Below are positions 13,584 to 53,672 of a stretch of 64,000 nucleotides of DNA, in pieces. Positions within the stretch are counted from its first letter, which is position 1, and each line of letters starts with the position of its first letter. Under the pieces are notes generated by a model that searched no databases, was not told the origin of the DNA, and was given only the letters and a program-made list of their open reading frames with translations. A program made the translations under genes and the position numbers. This stretch comes from an uncultured Actinomycetota bacterium. GTDB lineage: Bacteria > Actinomycetota > Actinomycetes > CAVWCF01. The stretch lies in the NCBI GenBank assembly GCA_963753435.1, contig CAVWCF010000001.1:480001-544000 (forward strand). The letters run 5' to 3'.

Positions 13584-15672
13584 TCAGGCGTCGATCCGGC
13601 TTCGATCCAAATCGCCGGCCCCGGCCACGATGAAATCGCGACGAGGCGCAACGTCGGAGCCCATCAGCAGGTCGAACGAGGCCGCGGCCGCCTCCGCGTC
13701 GGCCGCGGTGATGCGACGCAGCGTCCGCCCGGGCCCCATCGTCGTCTCCCGAAGTTGGGCCGCGTCCATCTCACCAAGACCCTTGTAGCGCTGTACCGGT
13801 TGCCGCACCCGGACGTTTCGCTTGTCCAGGTCCTTCAGCGTGCGCGTCAGCTCGGCGTCGGAGTAGGTGTAGCGGACCTCGGTCTTGCGGCCGCTGACCA
13901 CCTCCAGTCGATGCAGCGGCGGGACCGCCGCGTACACGCGGCCATCGGCCAGCAGCGGCTGCATCGTCCGGTGGATGAGCGTCAGCAGCAGGCAGCGGAT
14001 GTGTGCGCCGTCAACATCGGCGTCGGTCATGATGATGATGCGGCCGTACCGGACCGAGTCCAGGTCGAAAGTGCGCCCGGAACCGCCCCCGATGACCTGG
14101 ATGATGGACGCGCACTCGGCGTTCTTGAGCATGTCCGCTGCTGAGGACTTCTGGACGTTCAGAATCTTGCCGCGGATGGGCAGCAACGCCTGGAACTCGC
14201 TGTTTCGAGCGAGTTTGGCCGTGCCCAGCGCCGAATCCCCCTCGACGATGAACAGTTCGCTCCGCTCCACATCGTCCGAACGGCAGTCCGCCAACTTGGC
14301 CGGCAGGGCCGAAGTCTCCAGGGCGTTCTTGCGTCGCTGCAGTTCGCGGTGCTGCCGCGCCGCCAACCTCGTGCGGGCGGCGGTCACAACCTTCTCCAGA
14401 ACCGCACGCGCTGCCGCCTTGTCCGCGCGTTTGGTGCTGCATCAGGAAGGCGTCCAGCTCCTTGCCCACAACCCTGGCGACGATTCGCGAGACGGCTGCT
14501 GTCCCAAGCACCTCTTTGGTCTGACCCTCGAACTGCGGTTCGGGGAATCGGACGGTGACGACTGCGGTCAATCCCTCCAGAACGTCGTCCTTGATGACGG
14601 CGGCATCCCCGCTCTTGAGCAGTCGGACCGCGCGCAGCCCGTCGTTGAGGCTCTTGACCAGGGCCCGCTCGAACCCAGCCAGGTGGGTGCCGCCCTTAGG
14701 CGTAGCGATGATGTTGACGAACGAACGGACCGTGCTGTCATAGCCCACTCCCCAGCGCAGGGCGACATCCACGTTCACCTCGCGTTCGACTTCTGTGGGC
14801 ACCATGTGCCCCTTGCCGTCGAGGACCGGAACGGTTTCGTGGAAGTGACCCAAGCCGGACAGACGGATCACGCGACTGACGGGTTCGTCTGGGCTGAGCA
14901 CCTCGCAGAACTCCTCGATGCCCCCGGAGTGATGGAAGGACTCCGCCACGACGTCCGTGCCCCGCTCGTCCCGGACGTGGATCGTGAGGTCAGGTACCAG
15001 GTACGACGTCTGCTGGGCCCGGCGCAGAATCTCGGCCAGGTCGACTTCCGCGTCCGGCAGGAACACCTGCCGGTCGGGCCACCAACGGATTCGGGTCCCG
15101 GTGCGCGACCGCGGGGCTTTGCCGGCTTCGCGCAGCCCCGGCCGCTCGACGAAGAGGTCATCCGGTCCGTCCCCGGCGTACTCCCCCGGCAACCCGCGGT
15201 GGAAACTCATCGTGTACGTCTTGGAGTTGCGCTGCACCCAAACGTCCAGTCGCTCCGACAGCGCGTTCACCACCGACGCGCCGACGCCGTGCAGTCCGCC
15301 GGAGGCGGCATACGACCCGTTACCGAATTTCCCGCCCGCGTGCAGACGGGTCATCACGAGCTCAACACCGGTCAGCCCGCTTCGGGACTCCACGTCGACC
15401 GGGATACCCCGGCCGTCGTCGGCGACCTCGATCGAGCCGTTGGGGTGCAGGGTGATGTCGATACGCGAGCAGTGGCCGTCGAGCGCCTCGTCGACGGAGT
15501 TGTCGATGATCTCCCACAGGCAGTGGGCCAGCCCCCGGGCGTCGGTGGAACCGATGTACATGCCCGGTCGCTTGCGGACCGCTTCCAGGCCCTCCAGCAC
15601 CGTCAGGTGTTCGGCCGTGTAGTCACCCTTGGCCGACTTGCTACGCCGCTTCTGAGCGGGCTGGGCAGTCAC
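13584..15672 (-). CDS. parE: DNA topoisomerase IV subunit B (GyrB/ParE family), split by one frameshift near 14440
   Basis: LEGLEAVRKRPGMYIG, EIIDNSVDE, GGLHGVG, FEGQTK in ORF 14011-15774; VEGDSA, PIRGKILN, DADVDG, RYKGLGEM in ORF 13584-14387; removing one base after ...GCC TTC CTG ATG joins the two. Confidence 0.88.
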
Positions 15673-15877
15673 GGCGGCTCCGACACGATGGCGTTGCGGG
15701 CGGCTTTCTGGGCGGTGGCCCCCTGCGTGGGGCCTTCGCGAGGGTACCCGCGGCTGCGGTAACGATCTCGTCACGGCGCGCGGTGCGCGTCAGCCCAGGG
15801 CGAACCGGCGCGTCCATTCGGCATACCAGGAGCGAACTGCTGGTTGACTATGCCAACTGGCCCTAAGGAGAGCGCCC

Positions 15878-16119: not shown

Positions 16120-16920
16120 ATGAGCACGCCGCAGGTGCCGCCCGGCTGGTACCCGGATCCGGGCGACCCGGCTCGAACCCGGTGGTGGGACGGCTACGGC
16201 TGGACCGATCGAACGCAACCGCCGCCGTATGCCGGTACCTACGCCGCTCCCGGTGGTCCGGCAATGCCAGCCCAACCCAATCCGGCCGCGGCCGGGTACC
16301 CACCAGCTGCGGGCTACCCGCCGGCGCCCGGCTACGGGGGCGCTGCTCAGTGGCAGCAGCCCGGGCCGCTGGGCCCGACCGGCGTCCCGCTCGCCTCGTT
16401 CTGGCGCCGTCTCGGCGGCTACCTGATCGACCAGTTGATCCTGGCGGTGCCGACAACCCTGATCGCCATCCCAATCGTCCTTCCGACCATCGGCGACCTG
16501 GTCCGTGAGATCGACGCCAACTCAGATCGCCTGGACCCCAACAGCCCTGCCTACGACCCGGACTACCTGACCACGCTGTTCGACGGGCAGTTCTTCGCCA
16601 GCCTGGCGCTGATCGCTGTTGTGTCTTTGGCCATCAGCGCCGCCTACTGGATCATCGCCATCGGCCGATTCGGCCGCACCGTCGGCGGTCTGGCTGTCGG
16701 TGTGCGCGCCATCGACGTGAACGGAGCCCTACCCGGGTACGGCCGAGCAACGGTTCGCTGGGCGGTCCCGGCCAGCACCAACCTGCTGGGATTCATCCCG
16801 TTCGTCGGCTTCGTGGGCGCCCTGCTGCAACTGCTGATCTACCTGTGGATGCTGTGGGATCCGCAGCGGCAGGGACTGCATGACAAGGCGGCTGGGACCT
16901 ACGTAATCCTCGACCGCTAG
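16120..16920 (+). CDS. RDD family membrane protein with N-terminal DUF2510
   Basis: [17 protein letters not shown], Pro-rich linker, [26 protein letters not shown]. Confidence 0.9.
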
Positions 16921-17636
16921 GCACTCAGGCGATCGCGGTAGTCCAGCGCCAGTTCGATCATCTCGCTGAACGTCTCCTGACGTTCCGTGGCGGAGGTCTC
17001 TCCTCTGGTCAGCAGGTTGTCCGAGATGGTGCAGATGGACAGGGCCCGGACGCCGAACTGCGCCGCCAGCGTGAACAGCGCCGAGGCTCTCCATCTCCAC
17101 GGCCATGACGCCCCACTTGCCCAGGTACACGGTGGCATCGAAGTCACCGTAGAAGAGGTCGGTGCTGTAAACGCCCCCGACCTTGACGTCGATGTTCGCG
17201 CTCCTGGGCACTCCGGTAGGCAGCTCCAGGAGGCCGAAGTCGGACAGAGGCGGCATAGTCGATCAGGCCCAAATCGACGCCGGTTCGTACTGGAGTCGCT
17301 GCTGGCACCTTGCGCGATGACGACGTCGCGGACGTGGACGTCCGCAGCGGAACCCGCCGGCGGTCCCGACCCGGATCGCCGTCCGAACGCCGTACTCGGC
17401 GATCAGTTCCTGGACGTAGATCGAGATCGAGGGGATGCCCATGCCCGGTGCCCATGACGGACACCGGCACGCCTTCGTAGGTGCCGGTGAAGCCAAGCAT
17501 GTTGCGAACGTCGAGTTGAACTGAACGGGATCGGTGCAGGAAGTTGTCGGCGATCCATTGCGCACGCAGCGGATCACCGGCAAGGAGGATTCGCTCGGCG
17601 ATTTCTCCGTACTTCGCGCGCGATGTGAGTGCTCAT
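16917..17636 (-). pseudogene. deoD: Purine-nucleoside phosphorylase DeoD, multiply frameshifted (pseudogene or sequencing error)
   Basis: Fragments in different frames: [85 protein letters not shown]. Confidence 0.85.
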
Positions 17637-21859: not shown

Positions 21860-24800
21860 ATGGTGACCAGTGCCACGGTGGCGACCACCGTTCCCACAAC
21901 TGTCCCTCAAGAGCCCGGCTGGGCCGTCCTCGACGGCAACGAGGCGGCAGCGTCGGTTGCCTACGCGCTGTCAGACGTTGTTGCCATCTATCCGATAACG
22001 CCGGCTTCGCCCATGGGCGAGTTCGCCGACTCGTGGTCGGGCGCGGGAAAGCCGAATCTCTTCGGCGCGGTTCCCGACGTCATCGAGATGCAGTCCGAGG
22101 CAGGAGCTGCGGGTGCCTTGCACGGCGCTGCGACGACGGGCGCGTTGGCGACCACCTTCACCGCCTCCCAGGGCTTGCTGCTCATGCTGCCGAACATGTT
22201 CAAGTTGGCCGGCGAACTCACACCGGCAGTGATTCACGTCGCCGCGCGCACTGTGGCCACGCACGCCCTGAGCATCTTCGGCGATCACAGCGACGTGATG
22301 GCTGCCCGGACCACTGGTTGGACCATGCTGGCCTCCGGCAGCGTCCAGGAAGCGCAAGACTTCGCCGCCGTCGCACATGCGGTGAGCCTCAATTCGCGGC
22401 TGCCGGTCCTGCACTTCTTCGATGGTTTTCGCACCTCGCACGAGGTCGCCAAGATTCGCCGACTGGCTGCGGACGACCTGCGGGCGCTGGTTGACGCTGA
22501 CCGGGTCGCCGAGCATCGCGCCCGCGGCCTGACTCCGGACGCCCCGGTTCTGCGCGGCACGGCGCAGAACCCCGACGTCTTCTTCCAGGCCCGGGAGGCG
22601 GCGAACCGCTACCACGACGCCGTCCCCGATGCGGTTGCGTCGGCCTTCACGGCTTTGGCTGAGCGCACGGGGCGGACCTACCAACTGGTCGACTACCACG
22701 GGGCGCCGGACGCTGACCGCGTCATCGTGCTGATGGGCTCGGCGGCCGGGACGGTCGCCGAAGCGGTGGACGCGCTGGTGGCTGGTGGCGAGAAGGTCGG
22801 TGTGGCCACGGTTCGACTCTTCCGGCCCTTCCCCGCTGCGGCGCTGCTGAGCGCGCTGCCCGAAACTGTTCGCGCCGTGGCAGTCCTGGACCGCACCAAG
22901 GAACCGGGCGCCCCCGGTGAACCGCTGTTCCTGGATGTGGCCGCGACGCTGGGGCAAGCAGTGGCAACCGGTCAACGGAGCACGGCGCCGAGAGTCATTG
23001 GTGGCCGATACGGACTGTCCTCAAAGGAATTCACCCCAGCCATGGCAGCGTCCGTGTTCGAGCACGCCAGCGCCGTCCTGGCCGACGGCCTGGACGCCCC
23101 CGGAGCACCGCCGGCGCACGGCTTCACCGTCGGCATCGTCGACGACGTGACCCGCCTTTCGCTGCCCACACACGAACCGCTGCCCAACCTCGCCCCCGTA
23201 CGCACCGCGGTGTTCTACGGCCTCGGTAGCGACGGCACCGTCAGCGCCAACAAGGCCGCGGTGAAGATCCTCGGCGAGAACACCGACCTGCACACGCAGG
23301 GCTACTTCGTTTACGACTCCAAGAAGTCCGGTGCTGTCACCGTCAGCCACCTGCGGATGTCCGAGGACCCGATCCGTTCGGCCTACCTGGTTTCCGGGGC
23401 GGATTTCGTCGCCTGCCATCAGTTCTCCCTGCTGGAGCGAATGGACGTACTCGGCCTGGCGCACCCAGGGGCGACGTTCCTGCTCAACAGCCAGTACGGC
23501 CCGGACGAGGTTTGGGACCACCTGCCAGTTGAGGTGCAACAGGCGATCGTGGACAAGGGGCTGCGGCTGTTCGTGATCGATGCCTACGGCGTATCGGCCG
23601 CCGCCGGACTGCGCCAGCGCATCAACTCCGTGATGATGCCGGCGTTCTTCGCGCTATCAGGAGTGCTGCCCGCGGACGAGGCCCTCGGTCACATCCGGCG
23701 GCACTTCGAGAAGACTTACGCACGCCGCGGCCGCACCGTGGTGGAGCAGAACTTGGCCGCGATCGATGCCGCGCTACAGGCGCTGCACGAGGTCGAAGTG
23801 CCCGGGACGGTCACCTCGCAGATCCGCCGCAGGCGCCCAGTGCCCGAGGACGCACCGGACTTCGTCCAACGCGTCACCGCCCGGATGATCGCCGGTGAGG
23901 GCGACCTGCTGCCGGTCAGCGCGCTGCCCGTGGACGGGTCGTTCCCGACTGCCACCGCGCAATACGAGAAGCGCACGCTGGCGCTGGAGATCCCGATCTG
24001 GGATCCCAGCATCTGCATCGACTGCAACAAGTGCGCCATGGTCTGCCCGCACACCGCTATTCGCGCCAAGGTCGCCGAGCCCGCCGCATTCGACATGCTC
24101 GGGACCGATCTGCCGCGCAAGGACTTCCGGTCCCGCGAACTGCCCGACCGCGCATTGGTGATCCAAGTCGCCCCCGACGATTGCACCGGCTGCGGCATCT
24201 GTGTCGACGTCTGCCCGGCCCGCAGCAAGTCCGAGGCCAAGCACAAGGCGATCAACATGGAGCCGATCGGGGAGCACCTGGACGTGGAACGCGAACGGTT
24301 CGCCGCGTTCCTGGACCTGCCCGAGGCTCCCCGCGACCTGGTCCCGCACGGGACGATCAAGGGCTCCCAATTGCTGCAGCCGCTGTTTGAGTTCTCCGGC
24401 GCCTGCTCCGGATGCGGTGAGACGCCGTATCTGCGGCTGGTCTCGCAGCTGTTCGGCGATCGCGCGATCATCGCCAACGCGACCGGCTGCTCGTCGATCT
24501 ATGGCGGGAACCTGCCGACCACCCCCTGGTCGGTGAACGCCGACGGGCGCGGTCCGGCCTGGTCCAACTCCCTGTTTGAGGACAATGCCGAGTTCGGCCT
24601 GGGGATGCGGCTGGCGCTGGATCAGGCGCAGGCGCTCGCGATCGAGTTGCTGCGGCAGTTGGCTCCCCGCATCGGCGACGACACGGTGACAGCACTGATC
24701 AGCGGCATCGGCGCCCGCGATGACGTCGGGATCGCCGATCAACGAACCCGAGTGGCGGCGCTGAAGCAGCAACTCGGCGCAGTGGACGACAGCGGTCCCG

Positions 24801-25525
24801 ACCACCTGGCCGCACGCACCTTGCTGACCGTGGCTGACGACTTGGTCCACCGCAGCGTGTGGATCGTCGGCGGGGACGGCTGGGCCTACGACATCGGCTT
24901 CTCCGGCCTGGACCACACCTTGGCCGCCGGACGTGACGTCAACCTGCTGGTCCTGGACACGGAGGTCTACTCCAACACCGGGGGCCAGGCGAGCAAGTCC
25001 ACGCCCCGCGCAGCAGTGGCGAAGTTCGCCACCGGCGGCAAGCCAACACCGAAGAAGGACCTCGGGATGATCGCGATGGCCTACGGCACTGCGTATGTCG
25101 CCCAGATCGCATTGGGCGCCAACGACGTGCAGACCTTGCGCTCCCTGCAGGAGGCCGAAGCCTTCCCCGGACCCTCGCTGGTCATCGCGTACTCGACGTG
25201 CATCGCACACGGCATCGACATGAAGACGTCCATGACGCACCAGAAGGACGCCGTGGCAAGCGGCTACTGGCCACTGTTCCGATTCCGGCCGGGTAGCGAC
25301 GAGCACGAACACCCGTTCAGCCTGGACTCCAAGGAGCCGTCGATCCCGTTCAAAGACTTCGCCAAGTCCGAGGCACGGTTCGCAATGCTCGCTCGCACTC
25401 ACCCGGAGGCGGCCGAACACCTTGGCCGCGCCGCCCAGGCCGACATCGACGAACGCTGGCGCTACTACAGCCAACTGGCCGGACTGGAACGCTCGGTTGC
25501 GGCGGATGCGGAGGAAACGGAATGA
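21860..25525 (+). CDS. nifJ: Pyruvate:ferredoxin/flavodoxin oxidoreductase, single-chain PFOR
   Basis: DGNEA, YPITP, QSEAGAAG, YDSKKSG, two CxxCxxCxxxCP Fe-S motifs, EFSGACSGCGET, GGDGWAYDIG, YSNTGGQ. Confidence 0.96.
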   Translation: MVTSATVATTVPTTVPQEPGWAVLDGNEAAASVAYALSDVVAIYPITPASPMGEFADSWSGAGKPNLFGAVPDVIEMQSEAGAAGALHGAATTGALATTFTASQGLLLMLPNMFKLAGELTPAVIHVAARTVATHALSIFGDHSDVMAARTTGWTMLASGSVQEAQDFAAVAHAVSLNSRLPVLHFFDGFRTSHEVAKIRRLAADDLRALVDADRVAEHRARGLTPDAPVLRGTAQNPDVFFQAREAANRYHDAVPDAVASAFTALAERTGRTYQLVDYHGAPDADRVIVLMGSAAGTVAEAVDALVAGGEKVGVATVRLFRPFPAAALLSALPETVRAVAVLDRTKEPGAPGEPLFLDVAATLGQAVATGQRSTAPRVIGGRYGLSSKEFTPAMAASVFEHASAVLADGLDAPGAPPAHGFTVGIVDDVTRLSLPTHEPLPNLAPVRTAVFYGLGSDGTVSANKAAVKILGENTDLHTQGYFVYDSKKSGAVTVSHLRMSEDPIRSAYLVSGADFVACHQFSLLERMDVLGLAHPGATFLLNSQYGPDEVWDHLPVEVQQAIVDKGLRLFVIDAYGVSAAAGLRQRINSVMMPAFFALSGVLPADEALGHIRRHFEKTYARRGRTVVEQNLAAIDAALQALHEVEVPGTVTSQIRRRRPVPEDAPDFVQRVTARMIAGEGDLLPVSALPVDGSFPTATAQYEKRTLALEIPIWDPSICIDCNKCAMVCPHTAIRAKVAEPAAFDMLGTDLPRKDFRSRELPDRALVIQVAPDDCTGCGICVDVCPARSKSEAKHKAINMEPIGEHLDVERERFAAFLDLPEAPRDLVPHGTIKGSQLLQPLFEFSGACSGCGETPYLRLVSQLFGDRAIIANATGCSSIYGGNLPTTPWSVNADGRGPAWSNSLFEDNAEFGLGMRLALDQAQALAIELLRQLAPRIGDDTVTALISGIGARDDVGIADQRTRVAALKQQLGAVDDSGPDHLAARTLLTVADDLVHRSVWIVGGDGWAYDIGFSGLDHTLAAGRDVNLLVLDTEVYSNTGGQASKSTPRAAVAKFATGGKPTPKKDLGMIAMAYGTAYVAQIALGANDVQTLRSLQEAEAFPGPSLVIAYSTCIAHGIDMKTSMTHQKDAVASGYWPLFRFRPGSDEHEHPFSLDSKEPSIPFKDFAKSEARFAMLARTHPEAAEHLGRAAQADIDERWRYYSQLAGLERSVAADAEETE

Positions 25526-26517
25526 GCGTCGACCTGACCGTCACCTACCTGGGGATGCAACTGCATTCCCCGCTCGTCGCCTCGGCCGGTCCGCACACCC
25601 GCAGCCTGGACAACCTGCGGCGCCTGGAGGACGCCGGCATCGGGGCCGTGGTGCTGCCCTCCCTCTTCGAGGAGCAACTGATCGCGGAGTCGACACAGGT
25701 CGACGCACTGGTGGGCGACTTGGGTGCCGGCTTCGCGGAGACCAGTGGCTTCTACTCCGAGGATGTCGCGTTCGCGACGGGACCAGATGAGTACTTGGAG
25801 TTGTTGGCCGGCGCCAAGGCGGCCTTGAGCGTCCCCGTGGTCGCCAGTCTCAACGGCATCAGCGCTTCCGGGTGGACTCACTACGCCTCGCTGCTGCAGG
25901 AGGCCGGAGCCGACGCGCTGGAACTCAACGAGTACCGAATTGCGGCGGACCCGGACCGCTCCGCCGCCGACGTGGAGGCGGAGGTGCTCGACGTGATCGA
26001 GCAGGTCCGACAGGCCGTGAGCATTCCGATCGCGGTCAAACTGGGCCCCTACTTCACGTCCCTGCCGCATCTGGTGCGCCGCATCGAGAAGTCCGGGGCC
26101 AGTGGGCTGGTGCTGTTCAACCGCTTCTACCAGCCCGATTTGGATTTGGAGTCACTGCGCGCGACACCGGCCCTGGTGTTGTCCACCTCGGCTGATCTGC
26201 GCCTGCCACTGCGCTGGATCGGGCTGCTGCGCCACCTCACCGACCTGAGCCTGGCGTTGTCATCCGGAGTGCACACGGCCGAGGACGCGATCAAGTCGAT
26301 CCTGGTCGGCGCAGACGCGGTGATGATGACGTCGGCCTTGCTGCACCACGGCGCCGAGCACGTCACAACCGTGCAGGCAGGCATGCAGGCCTGGTTCGAC
26401 GAGCACGAGTACGAGTCGGTTGACCAGGCCCGCGGTTCGGCCGCTTGGGCGACCGGGCCGGACCCCACCGCCTTCGAAAGAGCCAACTACCTGACCGTCC
26501 TGACCAGCTACGTGTGA
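25522..26517 (+). CDS. Dihydroorotate dehydrogenase-like flavoprotein (PFOR-associated type)
   Basis: YLGMQLHSPLVASA, PSLFEEQ, ALELN, KLGPYF, LFNRFYQPD, FERANY; ATGA overlap with PFOR. Confidence 0.9.
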   Translation: MSVDLTVTYLGMQLHSPLVASAGPHTRSLDNLRRLEDAGIGAVVLPSLFEEQLIAESTQVDALVGDLGAGFAETSGFYSEDVAFATGPDEYLELLAGAKAALSVPVVASLNGISASGWTHYASLLQEAGADALELNEYRIAADPDRSAADVEAEVLDVIEQVRQAVSIPIAVKLGPYFTSLPHLVRRIEKSGASGLVLFNRFYQPDLDLESLRATPALVLSTSADLRLPLRWIGLLRHLTDLSLALSSGVHTAEDAIKSILVGADAVMMTSALLHHGAEHVTTVQAGMQAWFDEHEYESVDQARGSAAWATGPDPTAFERANYLTVLTSYV

Positions 26518-26529
26518 TCGGAGGAGCCG

Positions 26530-27414
26530 ATGAGCCGACTGAATGAAGTTAGGGAGCCGCTGGAGCGGTTCCGTAGCGCCTTCGCAGAGCACCTTCCGGC
26601 CGCGGACCGATTGGACTTCAACGTCGACCGGCTGACTCCCGAGGGGCGGACCTATCTGCGTGCGGAGACCTACGCAACGCCCACCTTGTCCCGGCTGGTT
26701 ATGGAGGAGTACCTGATCGGTAGCCGCATGCACGGCACGGTGATCATGGCCTTCGGCCAGCCGACCAGCGAGCAGCCGATCTTCTTCTACCAGCTCGGCG
26801 GGGTGGGCGACCGTTCGATCGCAGTGCTGGACATCAGCCCCGTCACTGCCGACCTTGATCTGTCCGCACTCGCGCCGGTGCACGCGCACTACGCCGAAGC
26901 GCTGGGCCTGACCGAGACCGCAACCGGATGGCTGCAAACCATCTGCTCGCCGTACTTGCTGCACTGCAACTACGCGGAGTTGGACGAGGAACTGTTCATC
27001 GAGGCCATGGCGGCCTACTTGGACGTCTGGATGACGCATTTTCACGGCGCGGAACTGCCCACAGGCTCCGATGCCCGCACCGAGCAGGTGACCAACGCGC
27101 TGTACAAGTTCAAGTTCCAGCTGCACCACCACGACCCGGCGTACGGGTTCTTCGCCAGGGCCTGGGGCAAGCCCGCCGCGGACGCATTCATCGACATCGA
27201 ATGCGGGGACCATCCCGCCTACCTGCCGCCGGTTTCCCTCGACGAGCATGTGAAGGTCTGGCACAACGACGAACTCAACGTCGTGTGGACCGAGGCCGCC
27301 CAGCAGGTGGTCGAAGCGGCGCCGGATGCCGACGCACGCCGGGAGCAGGTGGAGGCCGCTGCTGCTGAGGCTGGCTTCGGCATCGTCACCGCCGAACTGC
27401 TGGATCGCTTCTGA
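26530..27414 (+). CDS. Ferredoxin-dependent bilin reductase (PcyA/PebA/RCCR)-fold protein with C-terminal PCP_red-like domain
   Basis: YATP..E, QPIF, AVLDISP, W..ICSPY and HDP..FFARAWG..AADAFI follow the motif order of PcyA (recalled sequence); C-terminal WTEAA..P..R..E..A.EAG..VTAELL; GGAGGAG RBS. Confidence 0.78.
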   Translation: MSRLNEVREPLERFRSAFAEHLPAADRLDFNVDRLTPEGRTYLRAETYATPTLSRLVMEEYLIGSRMHGTVIMAFGQPTSEQPIFFYQLGGVGDRSIAVLDISPVTADLDLSALAPVHAHYAEALGLTETATGWLQTICSPYLLHCNYAELDEELFIEAMAAYLDVWMTHFHGAELPTGSDARTEQVTNALYKFKFQLHHHDPAYGFFARAWGKPAADAFIDIECGDHPAYLPPVSLDEHVKVWHNDELNVVWTEAAQQVVEAAPDADARREQVEAAAAEAGFGIVTAELLDRF

Positions 27415-27433: not shown

Positions 27434-28081
27434 TCAGTTGTTCGATCCGACCAGCACAGCGGGAACGTCAATTCCCAACTCCCCCGCCGCCTCAACTACT
27501 GCCGGCGGCAACGGATCGAAACGGGCGCCTTTGGTCTTCGCGGTCATGGCCGCATGGATAGCGGCACGGATCGAATCCTCAACCAATCCGCGAGTCCGTT
27601 CGGCTTCAGCCGGTCCGGCCCAGGTTTCGATCCGCCAACGTTCCACCGCCCGCAATGCAATCGACGCCGCCAGCGTCCCCGCGTAGCAGAGCTGAAACGC
27701 CACCAGCCGCGCGAGGCGATGCGCGGCTTCAGCGGAGTCTCGGTCGATCTCCAGGTCGCCGCTACCGGTAACCCAGCCGAGCAACTGGCGAGCGTCGAGT
27801 CGGGTGCCGTCCGGCAGCCGCACAGTTTCCCCTTCCGGGGGGATGAGCATGGCGACGGGCGGCTCACCCAGGACGTCTGCGACTGCGGCCCACTCATCCA
27901 GCGAGAGCCGACGACGCCCCTGTTCGATGTTCGTCACCGCGGTGGCGTTCAGCCCGTAGCCGGCGGCCTCCAGCCGATCCCCCAACTCCCGCGCCGACCA
28001 GCCGCGGGCGCCACGGTGCACCCGCATCCATCTGACGACGGTCTCGCCCAGGTCTGTGCCGGTCTTGGCCTTTGTCGTCAT
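27434..28081 (-). CDS. XRE-family HTH transcriptional regulator
   Basis: RGWSARELGDRL..TAVTNIEQGRRRLSLDEWAAVADVLG. Confidence 0.85.
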   Translation of the reverse strand: MTTKAKTGTDLGETVVRWMRVHRGARGWSARELGDRLEAAGYGLNATAVTNIEQGRRRLSLDEWAAVADVLGEPPVAMLIPPEGETVRLPDGTRLDARQLLGWVTGSGDLEIDRDSAEAAHRLARLVAFQLCYAGTLAASIALRAVERWRIETWAGPAEAERTRGLVEDSIRAAIHAAMTAKTKGARFDPLPPAVVEAAGELGIDVPAVLVGSNN

Positions 28082-30615: not shown

Positions 30616-30915
30616 GTGGACAACGTTGAGCGCTTCGAGGCATTCACCGAATTGGTGACCTCCTCGTTGGAGAACGCGATGGGAACGATGCAACGAGTCC
30701 ATCAGGGTTCGGTTGACCTATCCGTGGAGTTGTTCCAACAACTCGGCTTCTGGCAGGAGCCGGCGGAGCGATACCGCAAGGCTCACGACGCTGCAATCTC
30801 CAACGTGTACGGGCGCATCGTCGAGGTGAACAACGACTTCGGCGCCATGCTGGTTCAGCAGGCCCACAATCTGGACCGGTTCCTGCGCTCAGTTGTGCCC
30901 GACGAGAAGGCCTAG
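30616..30915 (+). CDS. Hypothetical all-alpha protein
   Basis: 99-aa ORF with natural composition; TAGGAT -10-like hexamer just upstream. Confidence 0.7.
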   Translation: MDNVERFEAFTELVTSSLENAMGTMQRVHQGSVDLSVELFQQLGFWQEPAERYRKAHDAAISNVYGRIVEVNNDFGAMLVQQAHNLDRFLRSVVPDEKA

Positions 30916-52898: not shown

Positions 52899-53672
52899 AT
52901 GATCACCGAGGCCGAGCAAGAAGTCCGGTTCCAGCGGCTGCGCCGCTACAACTTCGGTATGGGCCTACTGCACTTGGCTCAGGCGATCGCCGTGGTTGTG
53001 CTCGCCAACGAATTCACCCTTCCGGTCACGGCCGACTACCTGGCCGGCCCACCTGGCAGCGAGGCCCCGCCGCCGACGCTCCTGTTCGACTCACCCATCG
53101 GCTTCTGGGTGGCGGCCTTCCTCTTCCTGTCGGCGCTGGCCCACCTCGTGCTGGTGCTACCCGGCGTCTTCACCTGGTACGTCGACAACCTCAAGCGTGA
53201 GCGCAACTACGCCCGCTGGGTTGAGTACTCCGTTTCCAGTTCGATCATGATCGTCCTGATCGCGCAACTGACCGGCATTTCCGACATCACCGCCCTGTTG
53301 GCGATCTTCGCGGTGAACGCCACCATGATCGGATTCGGACTGCTCCAGGAGCACTACCACTCCCCCGGCGACGGGCACTGGCTGCCGTTCTGGCTCGGTT
53401 GCGTGGCCGGAACCGTCCCGTGGGTGGCGATCCTCATCTACGTGTTCGCGCCCGGCGCCGACACCGCAACAGCCATTCCCGGCTTCGTTGTGGTGATCTT
53501 CCTTTCGCTCTTCCTCCTCTTCAACACGTTCGCCGTGAACATGTACCTGCAGTACCGCCAGGTCGGCCGGTGGCGGGACTACCTCTTCGGCGAGTCCGTC
53601 TACGTGCTGTTGAGCCTCTTCGCCAAGTCGCTGCTGGCCTGGCAGATCTTCGGCAGCACTCTGGCCGGCTGA
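52899..53672 (+). CDS. heR: Heliorhodopsin
   Basis: 7 TM; LRRYN..LH..Q, GPPG, His in TM2, RWVEYS counterion motif, LSLFAKS retinal-binding Lys motif. Confidence 0.95.

Follow-up and report, generated by a model that had tools for sequence, protein, structure and literature searches.

A bilin-reductase-fold protein behind pyruvate:ferredoxin oxidoreductase in an uncultured actinomycetote: a candidate reductase of opened tetrapyrroles

The window analysed here, the whole 64,000-nucleotide stretch taken from contig CAVWCF010000001.1 of an uncultured Actinomycetota bacterium (positions 480,001 to 544,000), contains a gene for an orphan protein of the fold shared by ferredoxin-dependent bilin reductases (FDBRs) and the plant red chlorophyll catabolite reductase (RCCR), which lies directly behind genes for a pyruvate:ferredoxin oxidoreductase (PFOR) and a dihydroorotate-dehydrogenase-like (DHOD-like) protein. 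We tentatively favour the explanation that this FDBR-fold protein uses reduced ferredoxin to reduce an opened tetrapyrrole, that it belongs to a dispersed pigment-breakdown system and that its position behind PFOR is local. All known members of the FDBR/RCCR fold bind tetrapyrroles (PMC13193486), and in their pathways the known FDBRs and RCCR come after an oxygen-dependent enzyme (PMC10151467; publications are cited here by accession).

The host genome (G000; in our labels L-numbers stand for loci and C-numbers for contigs) is 2.17 Mb long and 98% complete. The stretch is present chiefly in sediment metagenomes: near-identical pieces came from sediment runs of two studies, and a few also from one marine-sediment and one soil run.

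Fold, C-terminal domain and pocket of the protein

The preliminary description of this DNA had called the third gene FDBR-like, which profile and structural comparisons bear out. The protein scores 65.4 bits against the Pfam family Fe_bilin_red (PF05996; E 8e-18, cut-off 31), and its predicted structure (pLDDT 92.9) aligns over ~220 residues with PebB, PcyA, HY2 and PebA, tied at Z 22.7-23.4, and also with RCCR (Z 20.4) and coproporphyrinogen oxidase (Z 16.7). A Foldseek comparison of the model with PcyA gave E 3e-10, and the model shows the alpha/beta/alpha sandwich of the fold. The PcyA triad Glu76/His88/Asp105 is absent, and the score against NF002760 is 22.8 bits (cut-off 206).

Two features had been missed in the preliminary description, a C-terminal domain resembling PCP_red and the active-site set E/V/Q/D. 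Residues 248-294 resemble the PCP_red domain of BchB (2kru, Z 6.7, root-mean-square deviation 1.4 A over 47 residues); the PF08369 match of the protein itself, at 15 bits, is below the cut-off of 32.5, while the family profile matches the Asr4154 structure 2l09 at E 0.0013 and the distant relatives P0052, P0055, P0058 and P0060 pass the PF08369 cut-off. Of 109 family rows, 86 have the Trp that opens this domain, the remaining 23 being short forms or cut contigs. A weak search for longer, fused homologues returned none, and for the small protein c25 assignment as a PCP_red domain found no support in profile comparison (probability 12%). Elsewhere in the host genome (L181:7702-10213; G000 C1:1302701-1305212) a fusion of an NAD(P)-binding domain with an RCCR-like domain is followed by a flavin-reductase-like protein that ends in a weak PCP_red match.

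Residues were mapped by ungapped alignment to Synechocystis PcyA, and conservation was counted over the 109 family rows. The positions of PcyA E76, H88 and D105 correspond to E59, V71 and Q88, and D202 sits in a motif that aligns with PcyA D220; these residues are conserved in 108 (E59), 109 (V71), 108 (Q88) and 109 (D202) rows. This combination differs from that of every one of the 11 enzymes compared in Table 2 of PMC13446030. The Asp220/Asp256 position, which D202 matches, matters for A-ring reduction (PMC13446030). At the position of Q88, an amide appears compatible with activity, because Arabidopsis HY2 carries Asn there (PMC13446030, Table 2) and the E91Q variant of pre-1 remains active (PMC13446030).

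The family is small, with 44 proteins at 41-93% identity and 18 representatives at E < 1e-30 among 1.84 billion, and is chiefly gammaproteobacterial; 67 homologue loci with flanks (28 + 39 from two sets) were available for the comparisons below. It was absent from all 400 other genomes of the host phylum examined, and its distribution is patchy. The family trees, built from family rows only, did not settle the branching of the window protein and that of L029, the nearest named locus by path, so that the PFOR links of these two loci may go back to one old event or to two. A literature search, which did not extend to the supplementary trees of PMC10151467 and PMC13193486, brought up nothing published on the family, on FDBRs fused to PCP_red or on what PCP_red does. 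Because PMC13193486 mentions two uncharacterised FDBR clades, the lineage may already stand unnamed in the published trees (PMC10151467, PMC13193486).

RCCR-like genes and the proposed pigment breakdown

An RCCR-like gene, separate from the FDBR family gene, is present in 26 of 28 genomes that carry the family. Among controls it was found in 27 of 118 order-level non-carriers (all three carriers in that sample were positive), in 2 of 58 relatives from the host's own class that lack the family and in 0 of 200 other class-level genomes, a contrast that overstates independence because the carriers are mostly related and incomplete gammaproteobacterial metagenome-assembled genomes. The host genome holds seven genes of the FDBR/RCCR fold, although five of these were in the profile seed and score by construction; a paralogue at C1:894719 was unsupported in pairwise comparison and found by a broader profile at E 2e-8. 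Since a 2.2-Mb genome devotes seven genes to this fold, the host may be a pigment specialist.

Two of the RCCR-like genes lie in a candidate catabolic cluster (L082:5865-20000; G000 C1 about 1563900-1578000) together with a Rieske/VanA_C oxygenase, an alpha/beta hydrolase, an unknown 323-aa protein, an SDR, a membrane protein, a racemase-like protein, a CN hydrolase, an HMG-CoA-lyase-like protein, an MFS protein and an aldehyde dehydrogenase. The cluster recurs in conserved form in G001, G010 and G054, with G010 and G054 adding isochorismatase-like, CoA-transferase and methylisocitrate-lyase-like genes, and the RCCR-like and Rieske genes scored are at the 99th-100th codon-usage percentile. A Rieske oxygenase gene also adjoins the FDBR family gene, co-oriented, in 4 of the 67 loci (two contexts) and lies ~3 kb away in three more; in L047 and L053 an RCCR-like gene stands alongside the Rieske oxygenase as well.

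Searches for the partners of a chromophore pathway were negative. No haem oxygenase was found in the host or the 28 other carriers (0/29 genomes), PHY, V4R and phycobiliprotein-globin (PF00502) families were matched in none of five genomes tested, with the limit that PF00502 may miss the bilin-binding globins (BBAGs) associated with pre-PcyA, and no globin was found among 126 neighbour proteins scanned. Within the window, 61 proteins (5 + 56) out of 66 script-picked open reading frames were scanned without a match to haem oxygenase, PHY or globin families, in agreement with the preliminary description. Its suggestion of catabolism rather than chromophore synthesis is plausible on these grounds: as no haem oxygenase, PHY, V4R or phycobiliprotein was found, chromophore synthesis is unlikely and breakdown of a pigment from outside is plausible. 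A HutW-type anaerobic haem-opening enzyme was not found above cut-off in five genomes, nor a dark-operative protochlorophyllide oxidoreductase (DPOR)/nitrogenase-like gene in the host genome.

Under the explanation that we prefer, the FDBR-fold protein would be a two-electron reductase of a linear chlorophyll- or bilin-type pigment, with its partner genes elsewhere in the genome. A pigment from outside would be opened by a Rieske oxygenase, or would arrive already open, and the RCCR-like paralogues and the FDBR-fold protein would reduce successive double bonds, with D202 and E59 as predicted proton donors. Electrons could come by way of the common ferredoxin pool, which PFOR would fill when oxygen is low, so that a dedicated relay would be unneeded, and the placement behind the PFOR and DHOD-like genes would give co-expression with a major source of reduced ferredoxin. 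Ring fragments might enter central metabolism through the amidase, CoA-transferase and lyase that the RCCR clusters encode.

A bolder version, which we consider unlikely as a whole, is an undescribed pathway of sediment heterotrophs in which a two-domain bilin reductase fed by 2-oxoacid:ferredoxin oxidoreductases (OFORs) reduces opened chlorophyll or phycobilin at low oxygen, the PCP_red-like domain, which the host genome also has fused to a flavin reductase (a weak PCP_red match), acting as a shared docking module. If true, this would place an FDBR in catabolism without haem oxygenase.

Several points weigh against a pigment reductase fed by PFOR, in addition to the limited independence of the RCCR co-occurrence. 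V and Q stand where PcyA has H88 and D105. The PaO domain PF08417 was found in none of five genomes; the Rieske enzyme of the cluster has Rieske and VanA_C domains and is, among solved structures, closest to saxitoxin hydroxylases and demethylases, and ring opening by a Rieske enzyme needs O2, which is awkward beside PFOR. The literature examined shows no substrate or activity for bacterial RCCR-like proteins. The putative operon has no ferredoxin gene, two candidate ferredoxins being encoded elsewhere in the genome (C5:144270 and C1:824970), where KorAB and the pair of flavin reductase and NAD-binding-RCCR protein are other possible donors. Finally, the genes most tightly linked to the clade of the window protein are those of an ATP-grasp ligase, a FabR-like regulator and the amphipathic c2 proteins, and these point to lipids no less than to pigments.

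Some further observations concern the same gene families. An exact GGGAC-N4-GTCCC palindrome, which we take to resemble a DosR box, lies upstream of the RCCR cluster in G000 and G001 (L082 ~13264, L144 ~7495), and its exact form occurs only twice in G000; a DosR-like box upstream of PFOR, based on the same motif, was rejected, as it has 2 mismatches, a level that occurs 72 times per 100 kb. In L086:8493-10213 (G000 C1) a VanA_C oxygenase domain without a Rieske domain is coupled to another FDBR-fold gene. Gammaproteobacterial carriers hold a further FDBR-fold family (L163:10289-10975, L164:8218-8910, L165:7693-8409) with Phe at the Asp105 position, located in L163 behind a molybdopterin oxidoreductase, and L162:6608-11185 (G063) holds a nitrogenase-like gene set, with two Oxidored_nitro subunits and two NifH-like P-loop proteins, 21 kb from the FDBR paralogue.

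The three-gene unit and the alternative explanations

The preliminary description had placed the FDBR-like gene 12 nt behind a PFOR and DHOD-like pair joined by an ATGA overlap, with a strong ribosome-binding site, and the coordinates, the 4-nt overlap and the GGAGGAG motif agree with this (Table 1).

Table 1 Features of the three-gene unit and its surroundings, in window coordinates.
Feature	Position	Strand	Size	Basis or remark
Single-chain pyruvate:ferredoxin (flavodoxin) oxidoreductase, NifJ type (PFOR)	21860..25525	+	1221 aa	TIGR02176
Dihydroorotate-dehydrogenase-like protein, PRK07565, function unknown	25522..26517	+	331 aa	NF005741
Spacer with Shine-Dalgarno-like GGAGGAG	26518..26529	+	12 nt	Sequence TCGGAGGAGCCG
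Orphan FDBR/RCCR-fold protein	26530..27414	+	294 aa	PF05996, model, fold searches, residue mapping
C-terminal helical domain resembling PCP_red (FDBR-fold protein, residues 248-294)	27271..27411	+		2kru structural match
XRE-type helix-turn-helix (HTH) gene, convergent	27434..28081	-		HTH_31; 19 nt past the FDBR stop
Small helical-hairpin protein of unnamed family c2	30616..30915	+		Clusters with homologue-locus neighbours

PFOR matches TIGR02176 over its full length (1614 bits, cut-off 911) with the domains POR_N, POR, EKR and Fer4, and the DHOD-like protein scores 409 bits against NF005741/PRK07565 (cut-off 303), its gene being the usual downstream partner of PFOR. The pair by itself is ordinary, as had been said before, and occurs in 10 of 61 relatives as well as in Synechocystis. 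Class 1 dihydroorotate dehydrogenases have their catalytic Cys within an N-x-S-C-P-N loop; the DHOD-like protein reads ELNEYRI, without Cys (E-L-N-x-Y is invariant in 15 aligned homologues), pyrD models score far below cut-off, and assignment to that class was rejected. We found no sigma-70 promoter and no plus-strand terminator around the unit, whose end is marked by the convergent HTH gene, and a complex prediction for the DHOD-like and FDBR-fold proteins gave no answer (score 0.00) and was not used as evidence.

RNA contigs ~95% identical to the window, from two runs of one estuary sample, bridge the junction of the DHOD-like and FDBR-fold genes (26414-26614), so that a related strain has this junction too. 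Flanking genes of the opposite strand are likewise covered by these runs, and a contig does not show a single transcript, which makes the bridging a weak sign of co-transcription. DNA contigs from four runs were too short for the whole unit, and among the pieces listed none bridged the junction of the DHOD-like and FDBR-fold genes by 31 bases on both sides.

The survey of homologous loci separates the FDBR family gene from the PFOR and DHOD-like pair. A PFOR or DHOD-like gene upstream on the same strand was found in none of the 45 loci with at least 1 kb of upstream sequence, and a DHOD-like gene in one of 67 (L030), on the opposite strand, where a PFOR-DHOD pair lies head-to-head with the family gene, 194 bp apart, and its proteins are 57% and 42% identical to PFOR and the DHOD-like protein of the window. 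In G001 and G002, genomes of the same taxonomic family as the host, the pair (71-87% identical to that of the window) is followed by a different gene and the FDBR family gene lies on another contig. Carrier genomes have a DHOD-like gene in only 11 of 28 cases, beside the FDBR family gene in none, and in the 10 of 61 relatives with a DHOD-like gene the FDBR family gene stands behind the pair in the host alone. The putative three-gene operon is local in nature, and a conserved module is not supported.

What recurs is a weaker association with OFORs. An OFOR gene lies within 7 kb of the FDBR family gene in 6 of 67 loci, divergently in L029 and L030, as a tail-to-tail KorAB-type pair in L017 and L028 and as a large PFOR-like gene 5.4-5.5 kb downstream in L004 and L042; L003, a close relative of L004, has no such link. 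Counted by context, this gives 3 of 18 against 0.17 expected (Poisson P ~7e-4), where the expectation derives from 51 POR_N matches in 29 genomes, the grouping into 18 contexts is our own and metabolic genes cluster anyway. As a local feature, the PFOR link carries modest weight.

A pigment reductase placed behind the PFOR and DHOD-like genes by a gene-shuffling accident, drawing its electrons from any ferredoxin source or from the flavin-reductase and NAD-binding partners, would fit the 18 different contexts in 67 loci, most of them without a redox neighbour, the separate genes of G001 and G002 and the presence of some OFOR in all 29 genomes tested. We consider such an accident improbable, however, given that OFOR adjacency recurs above the chance estimate, that in L030 the gene lies close to a PFOR-DHOD pair of such low identity to that of the window, and that the 12-nt spacing is tight and bridged in the RNA library of a related strain.

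About equally unlikely is a non-tetrapyrrole substrate, or mere binding of a lipophilic ligand, within a module of ATP-grasp, FabR-like and c2 genes, perhaps at lipid inclusions. In 6 of 67 loci the FDBR family gene has an ATP-grasp gene 2.1-3.7 kb away. By genome, 6 of 30 carriers have the ATP-grasp gene, as does 1 of 29 genomes without the family; five of these six carriers have a tree row, and all five fall in a 17-row clade with the window protein (96/90). G001 has a second, interrupted copy of the FDBR family gene directly behind an interrupted ATP-grasp gene, the neighbouring regulator resembles FabR (137 bits, below the cut-off of 151), and PHA_gran_rgn and acyl-CoA dehydrogenase/ketosynthase genes are among the neighbours. 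The c2 proteins, which cluster with neighbours in 11 of 67 loci and recur next to the family in Gammaproteobacteria, are modelled as two long helices that are more amphipathic than shuffles in most of 21 rows. Against this reading stand the invariant acidic and polar residues of the pocket, which argue for catalysis, the lack of the ATP-grasp gene in 24 of 30 carriers when an RCCR-like gene occurs in 26 of 28, and the literature examined, which describes no non-tetrapyrrole substrate for the fold.

Several observations concern this set of genes. L088:7621-12568 (G000 C1:890620-895570) is a module in which genes for c25, a membrane protein, a pair of c2 proteins, an ATP-grasp ligase and a FabR-like regulator accompany a divergent FDBR-fold gene. 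Gammaproteobacterial counterparts next to the FDBR family gene share 57-67% identity with the ATP-grasp and c25 proteins of this module, which suggests transfer across phyla. A second c25 copy lies in one run with a DUF169 gene and a small two-cluster ferredoxin (L087:6683-7923; G000 C1:824685-825920). Assignment of c2 to the phasin PhaP was rejected as one of many near-ties (Z 9.2), matches of helical hairpins being non-specific, and an Atlas search with c2 gave only unnamed clusters, below 0.9. In other lineages the FDBR family gene is tail-to-tail with a cytochrome c/COX1-family (nitric-oxide-reductase-like) cluster in L006-L012, L027 and related loci, and stands among F420 biosynthesis genes in L019-L025.

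The model of the preliminary description, a dedicated module made of PFOR, the DHOD-like flavoprotein and the FDBR-fold protein, which would pass pyruvate electrons to a tetrapyrrole as a sink, now seems somewhat less probable than either of the two alternatives above. The translational coupling and 12-nt gap, the similar codon usage, the adjacency of the same three genes in L030 and the induction of the Synechocystis nifJ-sll0744 operon under microoxia (PMC11368403) are in its favour, but the linkage survey, in which homologues proved largely unlinked to PFOR and the DHOD-like gene was rarely a neighbour, tells against it. Of the overall interpretation, the FDBR fold, the negative search for haem oxygenase and the plausible catabolic role are supported; the conserved three-gene module is not.

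That the FDBR-fold gene is the first cargo of the following lower-GC stretch, an alternative raised in the preliminary description, is very improbable: GC falls from ~0.67 to 0.60-0.65 across 28-40 kb, the family is patchy and a c2 gene lies inside that stretch, but the gene matches PFOR and the DHOD-like gene in GC3 (0.85) and in codon-usage percentile (75, against 73 and 83), unlike most of the eight downstream genes scored, five of which are at percentiles 2-15 (the HTH gene, which opens the atypical stretch at percentile 10, and the SRPBCC-like, DUF2807 and FG-GAP genes lie in this range) and three at 34-64, and neither a tRNA nor, in the scan of window proteins, an integrase family was found in the window.

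Elsewhere in the window there is a heliorhodopsin gene (52899-53672). The open reading frame for topoisomerase IV B subunit (14011-15774) is unlike its family after ~residue 450, which suggests a frameshift or an assembly error, and nucleoside-phosphorylase-like open reading frames near 16729-17500 show a similar break.

Comparison with known systems

The reductase of an opened pigment that we tentatively propose has to be set against several known systems. The window PFOR-DHOD pair is identical in arrangement and family membership to Synechocystis sll0741-sll0744 (PMC11368403), and the pair is seen in other genomes too, whereas an FDBR-fold gene behind it was seen in the host genome only. With the FDBRs PcyA, PebA, PebB, PebS, HY2 and PcyX, the window protein shares the fold, the Glu at the E76 position and the Asp at the D220/D256 position. 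It differs from them in identity (14-20%), in having Val at the H88 and Gln at the D105 position, in its extra PCP_red-like domain and in its hosts, where the genomes tested yielded no haem oxygenase, phytochrome or phycobiliprotein.

The pre-PcyA proteins (pre-1 to pre-3) are likewise FDBR-fold proteins with altered active sites from heterotrophic, non-photosynthetic bacteria (PMC10151467, PMC13446030). [quoted passage not shown] They have an acidic residue at the Asp105 position and no equivalent of E76 (PMC13446030, Table 2), whereas the window family has Q88 and E59, each in 108 of 109 rows.

Plant RCCR, with pheophorbide a oxygenase, offers the same fold (Z 20.4) and a catabolic role after a Rieske oxygenase. 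The window protein matches PF05996 and gave no match to PF06405 at E up to 1, while other genes of the host do match PF06405. Bacterial RCCR homologues are reported mostly from Actinomycetota and Pseudomonadota (bioRxiv 10.64898/2026.03.19.712979). The same preprint reports partial chlorophyll breakdown in Shewanella and describes the disposal of chlorophyll after ring opening in bacteria as unexplored; in its accessible part only early dephytylation steps are tested, and the window family is not treated. It is on the disposal after ring opening that the candidate bears, its hosts carrying RCCR-like genes with no haem oxygenase found, and as a small, soluble and well-modelled protein with a new active-site set it is a concrete candidate for assay.

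The window protein is an FDBR/RCCR member by fold that fails the residue, cluster and profile tests applied for PcyA, pre-PcyA and RCCR. We regard it as a distinct form of the bilin-reductase fold that goes with RCCR-type genes and has a predicted reductase activity.

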